Source: a virus
DNA: 64,000 nt
IMG/VR virus record: IMGVR_UViG_3300050821_017626
Location: 1 to 64,000 of that record
Direction: 5' to 3' (one strand)
Of this stretch, positions 37,044 to 38,388 are shown piece after piece. The position numbers and the translations under genes were made by a program. Under the pieces are notes generated by a model. That model was not told the DNA's origin and ran no database searches. It saw only the letters and a program-made list of their open reading frames with translations. Position 1 is the first letter of the stretch. Every line of letters begins with the position of its first letter.

Positions 37044-37096
37044 CCCCTTTCGCCCATCGCTGGGCTCATCAGTACCCGACTAGCCGGGTAGAGGGG
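37044..37096 (-). ncRNA. Type III hammerhead ribozyme (HHR-B)
   Basis: CCCCU-C^-UACCCGG(CUAG)UCGGGUA-CUGAUGA-GCCCA(GCGA)UGGGC-GAAA-GGGG; all core nucleotides and three stems present. Confidence 0.92.
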
Positions 37097-37288
37097 TCAC
37101 CGCTCCCGTAAGAGCGGTGAGGTGATGTATACATTGACGGTGGAGCCGTATTGGTCGCGAGTGGGCTCCAATTCAACAGTGACGACTTCAACAGGGTCGA
37201 CGCGGTGAGGGAACTTGATAACTTCCGAGTCGATCATGGTCCCCAGCCGACCGTCGAAGGTGATGAGTTTCCCGAATACATACTTCAT
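37097..37288 (-). CDS. 63-aa protein enclosed by two hammerheads
   Basis: ATG at 37288, 9 nt after AAAGGGG; the stop codon abuts HHR-B. Confidence 0.65.
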   Translation of the reverse strand: MKYVFGKLITFDGRLGTMIDSEVIKFPHRVDPVEVVTVELEPTRDQYGSTVNVYITSPLLRER

Positions 37289-37297
37289 GGTGTCGTT

Positions 37298-37349
37298 CCC
37301 CTTTCGGCTGTCGCCAGCCATCATCAGCGAGCGCTATTGCTCGGAGGGG
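37298..37349 (-). ncRNA. Type III hammerhead ribozyme (HHR-A)
   Basis: CCCCU-C^-CGAGC(AAUAGC)GCUCG-CUGAUGA-U-GGCUG(GCGA)CAGCC-GAAA-GGGG; one extra U after A9. Confidence 0.88.
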
Positions 37350-38008
37350 TTCCGCTGCCTTCACCGTCTCATCCTGTCGCATTCAGGCGGGATTGTGGCA
37401 GCGGGGCCGCTTCTGGCGTGTTGACCGCGTACCACGGCAACCGCCAGGGAAAGCGCGCTATGAAGTTCCTCGCTCTGCGTTGTGCAAACTCGGCAGCGAG
37501 CGAACGTTGTCAAGGTTCCGACGGCAGGCTCTCATCCTGCGCGCTATGCGGTGCCTTCCTTATATAAGGAAGGGCCGCGTTGTTTGGGTTAGCGGCGGTT
37601 GCGCCTTCTAGGCAAGCGAACAACTATCTCGCCAGGGAATGCTTCGCCATTGGCTATACGATCAGCCAGCAGCATACGCATTCGGCCGATTTCTCCCGCT
37701 GTTCCTGATACTTGCCCAACCTTGGGCGCCCAAAGAATAGCTTTCCGCATATCATCCTCTCTAGCGGCGGCTGATTGTGTAAAACGGGCAGCCAGCGTTA
37801 ACCCAAACGATGATACCGACGATGCTGGCCAGCAGAAGGCCGGCTTTCGTGACTACTGCGAACAGCGTTGCTTCCATTCCTCGTTCCTCCTTGCGTCATA
37901 ACCGTTATGGTTATCGGTTGGTCGGTCAGGTTTCTTTAGGTCGGTTGGGTGAAGTAATCCTCTCCGATTGTCCCCGAGGGGAGGGAGAGGAGGAGGTCAC
38001 TCCATCCT

Positions 38009-38065: not shown

Positions 38066-38358
38066 CTTTAGGCGCTTACATCTTGCTTTCTGCTTTCCGC
38101 AGATCGTCCCCCAACGACATGAGTTCGTTGTGTAAGGCAAGATACTCTCCACTCAGGTAAGGAGTTGCTCGAAGCAACTGGTATACCCGATCAATCTCCG
38201 CACATATTCTCTTGAGATCCATCAGTTTCTCCTCGGTCGGTTGGGTGAACTCTGCTGCTCACATAGGGATTATTCCGCACATCCCGTGCCATGTGAGATA
38301 CTATTTTTTGGGTTTCTGCGACCGTGCCTGTACCGTGCCTGTGGCCCAACCCATCTAT

Positions 38359-38388
38359 AGTATAGCACAGGGTGACGCTATGGGTCAA
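38359..38388 (-). promoter_or_regulatory. sigma70-type promoter of the leftward block with a tandem operator-like repeat
   Basis: TTGACC-N18-TATACT with extended TG; GGGTGACGC repeated at 38370 and 38392. Confidence 0.65.

Follow-up and report, generated by a model that had tools for sequence, protein, structure and literature searches.

Does a self-cleaving ribozyme that shares a strand with the Shine-Dalgarno (SD) sequence of the adjacent gene control the translation of that gene, or does it process the transcript? This question is raised by a locus on the minus strand of the viral record IMGVR_UViG_3300050821_017626, of which positions 1 to 64,000 were analysed (64,000 nt, hereafter the window, to which all coordinates refer). 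Two hammerhead ribozymes, HHR-A and HHR-B, flank a small open reading frame, ORF63, and the SD-like sequence of ORF63 lies within HHR-A; a preliminary description of the locus held that self-cleavage frees the ribosome-binding site (RBS) and that circularisation would hide it again. In the analysis described below, the balance tips, if slightly, toward both ribozymes being active and cutting an early minus-strand transcript on either side of ORF63, that is, toward processing and insulation of a single cistron, and the coupling of this processing to translation is most likely modest at most.

The window is part of a record that consists of a single contig of 96,261 bp with 54% G+C. The genome, probably that of an uncultured soil phage, codes for helicase, sliding clamp, sigma factor, portal and terminase-like proteins. 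The only sequencing run listed for the sequence, a DNA run from a soil metagenome, is probably its source and contains one identical contig, free of variants or joints. A blastn search against INPHARED returned no match and IMG/VR contains no close relative, and the portal protein has matches at only ~25% identity. The neighbors of ORF63 are singletons in protein collections, as is ORF63 itself, and a PHROG search with eight small ORFs gave no convincing match, the one weak hit (E 0.0058) being that of a 64-aa ORF. The phage uses SD sequences, with GGAG, AGGA and GAGG enriched 3-4 fold upstream of start codons.

The anatomy of HHR-A can be read from the sequence as follows:

37298..37349, minus strand: HHR-A, type III hammerhead ribozyme (core nucleotides and three helices read directly; descriptor; minimum free energy (MFE) fold)
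37349-37346, minus strand: CCCC of the stem III 5' strand, followed by U16.1 (37345) and C17 (37344)
37345..37349, minus strand: CCCCU, the stem III 5' strand, located 5' of the scissile bond and departing with the 5' cleavage product
37343-37328, minus strand: stem I, CGAGC/GCUCG, with the loop AAUAGC
37327-37321, minus strand: core CUGAUGA, with one extra U next to it, at 37320, between A9 and G10.1
37319-37306, minus strand: stem II, GGCUG-GCGA-CAGCC
37305-37302, minus strand: GAAA, followed by the stem III 3' strand GGGG (37301-37298)

The predicted cut falls between 37344 and 37343, after C 37344 in the minus-strand reading. Folding of a 67-nt segment gives the hammerhead three-way junction as the MFE structure (-23.1 kcal/mol, z -2.95). 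The second copy lies downstream of ORF63:

37044..37096, minus strand: HHR-B, canonical type III hammerhead (sequence; MFE fold with the hammerhead junction; descriptor)

Its cut is predicted between 37091 and 37090 on the minus strand. Direct reading and the descriptor show in both copies the complete type III core, namely C3 U4 G5 A6 N7 G8 A9 and G12 A13 A14, together with A15.1-U16.1 and a position H17 that is not G; in the MFE folds, the three helices are present with loops capping stems I and II and stem III open, the stem lengths in the two copies being 5/5/4 bp and 6-7/5/4 bp. The type III descriptor finds exactly two matches in the 96-kb genome, HHR-A and HHR-B, against a chance expectation, from 100 dinucleotide shuffles, of 0.11 per genome under loose limits and 0.00 under strict limits. 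Nearly every position of stem I and three of the five pairs of stem II differ between HHR-A and HHR-B with all pairs retained, a pattern of compensatory change in the helices that has two sequences as its basis.

A hammerhead with an extra U at this core position, as in HHR-A, is reported to be active (De la Pena & Flores 2001, as summarised in PMC3705267), and in CChMVd, replacement of the extra A by U raises the rate 3-4 fold (PMC3705267). The variant is also common among phage hammerheads. In HHR-A, the U makes the core CUGAUGAUGG (37319-37324, minus strand) and thereby creates two AUGs in frame with ORF63. The same module as in HHR-A, CUGAUGA-U-GGCUG...CAGCC-GAAA, is present in 93 IMG/VR stretches. 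Searches with the exact stem III pattern returned chance matches lacking stem II in IMG/VR and the JGI metagenomes; in genome contigs, the first such pattern had no match and the second had 21 matching stretches, one of them a type III hammerhead.

Neither copy was scored by the Rfam model RF00008 (gathering threshold 48.5 bits), even at E <= 10, and Rfam searches at the gathering threshold and at E <= 10 produced only a misaligned Hammerhead_II at 15 bits and no true hammerhead match. We read this as a limit of the models, because the hammerhead models of Rfam release 15 also detected, at E <= 0.01, none of six other loci (L019, L023, L118, L149, L158 and L202) that carry phage type III hammerheads passing the strict descriptor. 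Such ribozymes of phages are probably under-annotated.

The gene between the two ribozymes and its SD are the following:

37298..37303, minus strand: AAGGGG, SD-like sequence of ORF63, of which GGGG (37301-37298) is the stem III 3' strand of HHR-A
37097..37288, minus strand: ORF63, 63 codons followed by the stop codon UGA (37099-37097), with coding-like codon usage and no known family

The GGGG is separated from the ATG at 37288-37286 by a spacer of 9 nt (AACGACACC), in which there is no other purine run. The pairing of AAGGGG with the 16S anti-SD tail (-7.8 kcal/mol) ranks in the top 5-9% when compared with random 22-nt windows from the phage genome and is stronger than that of several neighboring genes. 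The proposal that this is the sole SD-like sequence before ATG 37288 thus holds, with sequence and anti-SD energies in agreement, and so does the proposal that it pairs with a CCCCU strand carried by the 5' product, since CCCCU is read 5' of the scissile bond. The codon log-likelihood of ORF63 is 0.182 per codon in frame, compared with a phage gene average of 0.158 +/- 0.121, and -0.35 and -0.47 in the two other frames. Homologs of ORF63 were found neither in IMG/VR nor among 5.8 billion protein clusters, where it matches only itself, and a PHROG search gave no match; the AlphaFold model (pLDDT 55) is unusable, and the protein atlas score of 0.85 is under the lead threshold. A 75-codon version, which was the choice of one gene caller, is open in frame from the ATG at 37324, inside the ribozyme core, and the sequence contains no SD before either of the in-frame AUGs at 37324 and 37321. 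ORF63 is presumably translated from ATG 37288.

The two predicted cuts delimit a unit that contains ORF63, and stable hairpins of the MFE structures end just 5' of each ribozyme:

37091..37343, minus strand: predicted 253-nt excised unit, bounded by the two cut sites
37097..37120, minus strand: 3'-terminal hairpin of ORF63 (9 bp), with the stop codon as its end, directly preceding HHR-B (MFE structures)
37352..37404, minus strand: structured element with the outer helix CCGCUGCC/GGCAGCGG, ending 2 nt before HHR-A (MFE structures)

The unit consists, in this order, of the HHR-A body as the 5' untranslated region (UTR), ORF63, the terminal hairpin and a CCCCUC tail. On cleavage, the HHR-A body, with its two hairpins and a 5'-OH end, would serve as the 5' UTR, the product would terminate in a hairpin followed by CCCCUC with a cyclic phosphate, and the element at 37352..37404 would become the 3' end of the upstream product. 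The packing of the locus is tight, so that the only SD of ORF63 is the stem III 3' strand of HHR-A and its stop codon touches HHR-B, which begins at the base directly after the stop, with a 0-nt gap to its CCCC. The equivalent GGGG of HHR-B (37047-37044) is not an SD because the next ATG (37005) is 38 nt away. CCCCUC and GAAAGGGG are identical in HHR-A and HHR-B, and so is the whole 14-nt stretch of stem III plus tail, CGAAAGGGGAACGA, whereas stems I and II have diverged.

Several further elements occur upstream of this unit on the minus strand. The apparently non-coding leader of ~240 nt before HHR-A contains CAUAGCGCGC twice (37548-37539 and 37462-37453) and CAGGAUGAGA twice (37539-37530 and 37376-37367), the first copies of the two motifs adjoin each other, and the second copies are separated by 76 nt; AUAGCGC also forms loop 1 of HHR-A. 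Between this leader and a 53-codon ORF there is a perfect 20-bp palindrome, CCTTCCTTATATAAGGAAGG (37554-37573), which is unique in the genome and could act as an operator or form an RNA hairpin. Farther upstream, a sub-threshold match to twister-P1 (38011-38063; 37.5 bits, the gathering threshold being 67.2; E 1e-5 for 5 kb searched) overlaps a GCGCC-UAAA-GGCGC hairpin and closely follows the stop of a 48-codon ORF. It has GAGCA in place of the consensus GAGGG, which may disrupt one pseudoknot. This candidate is immediately followed by a 21-nt, CU-only, anti-SD-like tract, CCUCCUCCUCUCCCUCCCCUC (37976-37996), followed by the GA-rich GGGGACAAUCGGAGAGGA, and a tandem ACAGGCACGGU repeat (38321-38342) is found just downstream of a promoter-like site at 38388..38359.

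The pairing of the SD was followed through the RNA forms that the two cuts would yield. In the precursor, the SD is predicted to pair either with CCCC 37349-37346 of HHR-A (P 0.44-0.66) or with CCCC 37096-37093 of HHR-B, the MFE structure showing the latter, domain-swapped arrangement. Binding of the 30S subunit and folding of the ribozyme would be mutually exclusive at the SD, and the HHR-A cut would remove the competing CCCCU strand; the SD is thus part of a ribozyme helix, and its partner is predicted to depart on cleavage. The predicted binding of the two HHR-A cleavage products, about -4 kcal/mol, converts to a millimolar Kd, so the 5' product should dissociate. The ensemble costs of opening the 6-nt SD, calculated from nearest-neighbor secondary structure in which kinetics, hammerhead tertiary contacts and coaxial stacking are ignored, are the following:

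uncleaved RNA: 3.0-3.7 kcal/mol
after the HHR-A cut: 2.2-3.6 kcal/mol
253-nt product of both cuts, linear: 4.5 kcal/mol
253-nt product, circular: 4.0 kcal/mol

At the level of secondary structure, then, the opening cost of the RBS does not drop markedly on cleavage. Opening of the 30-nt ribosome docking site takes 6.6-8.6 kcal/mol in all RNA forms, no more than the 7.2-13 kcal/mol of seven neighboring genes. Only in the intermediate cut at HHR-A, where HHR-B keeps its own strand, does the SD reach its greatest accessibility, with a mean unpaired probability of 0.57. After the second cut, the SD is masked again because HHR-B bears the same CCCCUC as HHR-A: CCCC 37096-93 pairs with GGGG 37301-298 in both the MFE structure and the partition function, with P 0.96 in the linear and P 0.93 in the circular form, closing the ends of the unit. 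The re-hiding of the SD in a circle, as originally envisaged, is accordingly borne out by these models, which also predict it for the doubly cut linear RNA, something that had not been foreseen. The predicted gain in SD accessibility from the HHR-A cut is small (~1-1.5 kcal/mol), amounting by our estimate to roughly two-fold, and short-lived, as the second cut would let the HHR-B tail re-pair the SD and thus end the gain. Tertiary contacts and coaxial stacking could give stronger masking than predicted; as they stand, the modeled energies argue for, although they fall short of proving, a modest effect on translation.

Because the locus itself has no relatives, it was compared with other phage hammerheads through the core and stem II. 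Three IMG/VR scans filtered for type III topology yielded 54 distinct ribozymes, HHR-A and HHR-B included; since two stem II sequences served to draw the sample and some of its phages are related, the percentages that follow are rough. The SD of the next gene overlaps the stem III 3' strand in 8/54 (15%) and begins within 12 nt after stem III in 26/54 (48%); it is further away in 8/54, weak in 6/54, and in the remaining 6/54 no start codon was found after the ribozyme. An SD overlapping stem III or beginning at most 12 nt after it is thus seen in 34/54 (63%), compared with 9.4% of random same-strand positions (2.7% overlapping, 6.7% near). The start codon follows stem III at a median of 19.5 nt in the sample and at 9 nt in HHR-A. 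Overlap is clear in L023/L202, L118, L149 (which also has a GGG stem) and L332:6649-6708, where the 8-bp stem III contains six bases of UAAGGAG; two sister ribozymes on the L332 contig have the same SD outside stem III. The one type III hammerhead from the scan of bacterial genome contigs, which belongs to a deltaproteobacterial metagenome-assembled genome, also has its SD 4 nt after stem III. The general layout is a type III hammerhead placed directly before the SD and start codon, with the SD within stem III being the compact tail of the distribution; since the SD mostly lies outside stem III (26 near against 8 overlapping), masking is not what is generally selected.

The sample also contains arrangements that resemble the pair described here. 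At L280:687-2043, L332:6649-8062 and L281:6348-6400, two or three type III hammerheads follow one another in tandem, and each precedes a gene that has the same SD. Among adjacent type III pairs, stem III is cross-compatible over at least 3 bp in 8/11, a count that is inflated by shared GUC triplets; stem III is identical in four units, namely in L239 (both strands), L281 and this window, and nearly identical in one L280 pair. L239 (IMGVR_UViG_3300003576_000155, 1122 nt) carries type III hammerheads on each strand, recurring every 480 nt with an identical stem III; catalogued as a viral contig, it has the look of a concatemer, viroid-like or satellite. A conserved 'ACGAC' tail, a candidate motif, is shared with L193. 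A stop codon is located 13-40 nt upstream of the ribozyme in 33/55 cases, the 0 nt of HHR-B being an extreme.

Processing and insulation of a single cistron, the reading given a slight preference above, fit the position of HHR-A directly 5' of the SD and start codon, with a body that, by type III topology, is retained on the downstream product; we infer cleavage in vivo and any effect that it has on translation. Processing alone is no explanation for the identity of stem III and its 14-nt surroundings in the two copies, for which a closed or circular RNA is the only one of the readings considered to account.

Under a stronger version of the original proposal, the uncleaved RNA would be silent, with the SD hidden by a stem III that the folded ribozyme stabilizes, and cleavage would be needed for substantial expression. 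The SD is indeed entirely within stem III, the masking strand departs with the 5' product, no second SD is present, and the same overlap is seen in at least seven other distinct phage hammerheads, L332:6649-6708 among them, and recurs in independent phage contigs; moreover, devices engineered to release a masked SD by means of a hammerhead are functional in Escherichia coli (PMC12192606, PMC10381313). To this extent the idea that cleavage frees the RBS stands. As a strong switch, however, it is unlikely: the predicted change in opening cost is at most 1.5 kcal/mol, the SD is masked again by the HHR-B tail in the doubly cut product, and most phage type III hammerheads have the SD outside stem III. 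Furthermore, cleavage by natural hammerheads takes seconds to a minute (PMC6155905), which means that a masked precursor would not persist for long unless cleavage itself is regulated. The switch would require either masking much stronger than predicted or regulated cleavage.

A third reading, which we hold to be quite unlikely, takes the product as a closed-loop or circular single-gene RNA: the ends of the 253-nt unit would fold into a nicked HHR-A, and ligation could follow, by the reverse reaction of the ribozyme or by RtcB. The SD would be masked in this form, and ribosomes ending translation at the UGA beside the CCCC would unmask it. The excised ends rebuild a complete hammerhead with the high predicted closing probability given above, a pairing already adopted in the domain-swapped precursor MFE, stem III and its tail are identical in copies whose stems I and II differ, most adjacent pairs of the sample are likewise cross-compatible, and the stop codon of ORF63 abuts the CCCC. 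Against this, circular or spliced products of prophage hammerhead arrays were sought by Perreault et al. and none were found (PMC3088659), the abutment of the stop codon is unusual given the typical gap of 13-40 nt, and the cross-compatibility is inflated by the GUC triplets. The more specific form of this reading, in which the 253-nt ORF63 RNA is a self-closing, possibly circular messenger whose SD is locked by the rebuilt stem III and re-opened at each termination at UGA, is very improbable; if true, it would be a self-coupled loop of termination and re-initiation made of two ribozymes. Finally, there is hardly any likelihood that the premise itself fails, the motifs being inactive relics, or ORF63 starting elsewhere (AUG 37324/37321) or not being a gene, as might be suggested by the lack of Rfam matches, the 75-codon form picked by one gene caller and the lack of ORF63 homologs in IMG/VR and the protein clusters searched, but is contradicted by the perfect cores, the compensatory stem changes, the near-zero chance expectation, the gene-like codon usage of ORF63, the lack of an SD before either alternative AUG and the six other type III loci that Rfam missed.

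Processing and insulation of a single cistron also accord with what is known of phage hammerheads. Perreault et al. (2011; PMC3088659) demonstrated cleavage by gene-flanking prophage hammerheads, both in vitro and within E. coli, and the role proposed for the prophage arrays is transcript processing (PMC3088659, PMC6765202). What the many hammerheads of phage genomes do is not yet settled (PMC6765202). As in the locus described here, several same-strand hammerheads in those arrays flank single small phage genes, with single-gene mRNAs as the proposed outcome (PMC3088659); the tested examples are not described as carrying the SD of the next gene, whereas here both copies are of type III and have one common stem III, and SD and stop codon touch the ribozymes. 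HHphage of the haloviruses HF1/HF2 similarly is a viral hammerhead located only 13 nt upstream of the start codon of the earliest-placed early gene, and the mapped 5' end is close to its cut site (PMC3088659), but it belongs to an archaeal virus and has a variant core, and no SD overlap is described. Retrozymes and viroid-like RNAs (PMC4918200, PMC7761336) share with this locus two type III hammerheads of the same polarity and with the same stem III that delimit a self-rebuilding unit; here, in contrast, the unit is part of an operon of a double-stranded DNA phage, contains an SD-led ORF and is known from DNA only.

Among engineered systems, the masked-SD ON-switches (PMC12192606; for an example, see PMC10381313) also place the SD in a ribozyme helix from which cleavage releases the mask. 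The ribozyme of these designs is of type I with an extended stem I, the mask is long and stable, and an aptamer confers ligand control, whereas the mask here is a 5-bp stem III, with no evident sensor and with a second copy of the mask downstream. RiboJ, which combines the type III hammerhead of sTRSV with a hairpin (PMC6206723), is likewise a type III ribozyme immediately upstream of an RBS; its body stays as the structured 5' end of the RNA, and expression of the insulated genes rises (PMC6206723). The added hairpin of RiboJ keeps the RBS exposed, whereas here the RBS is within stem III; with this difference, the locus may be regarded as the counterpart of RiboJ in nature. Hammerheads flanking phage genes are already known, whereas the literature searched contains no description of a natural SD-masking hammerhead, that is, of a natural SD serving as a ribozyme strand. 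The predicted effect being small, the locus serves well as a test case and does not in itself demonstrate a new mechanism. Together with the sample, it indicates that type III hammerheads of phages are regularly placed directly before the RBS and sometimes use the RBS itself as a strand of the ribozyme.
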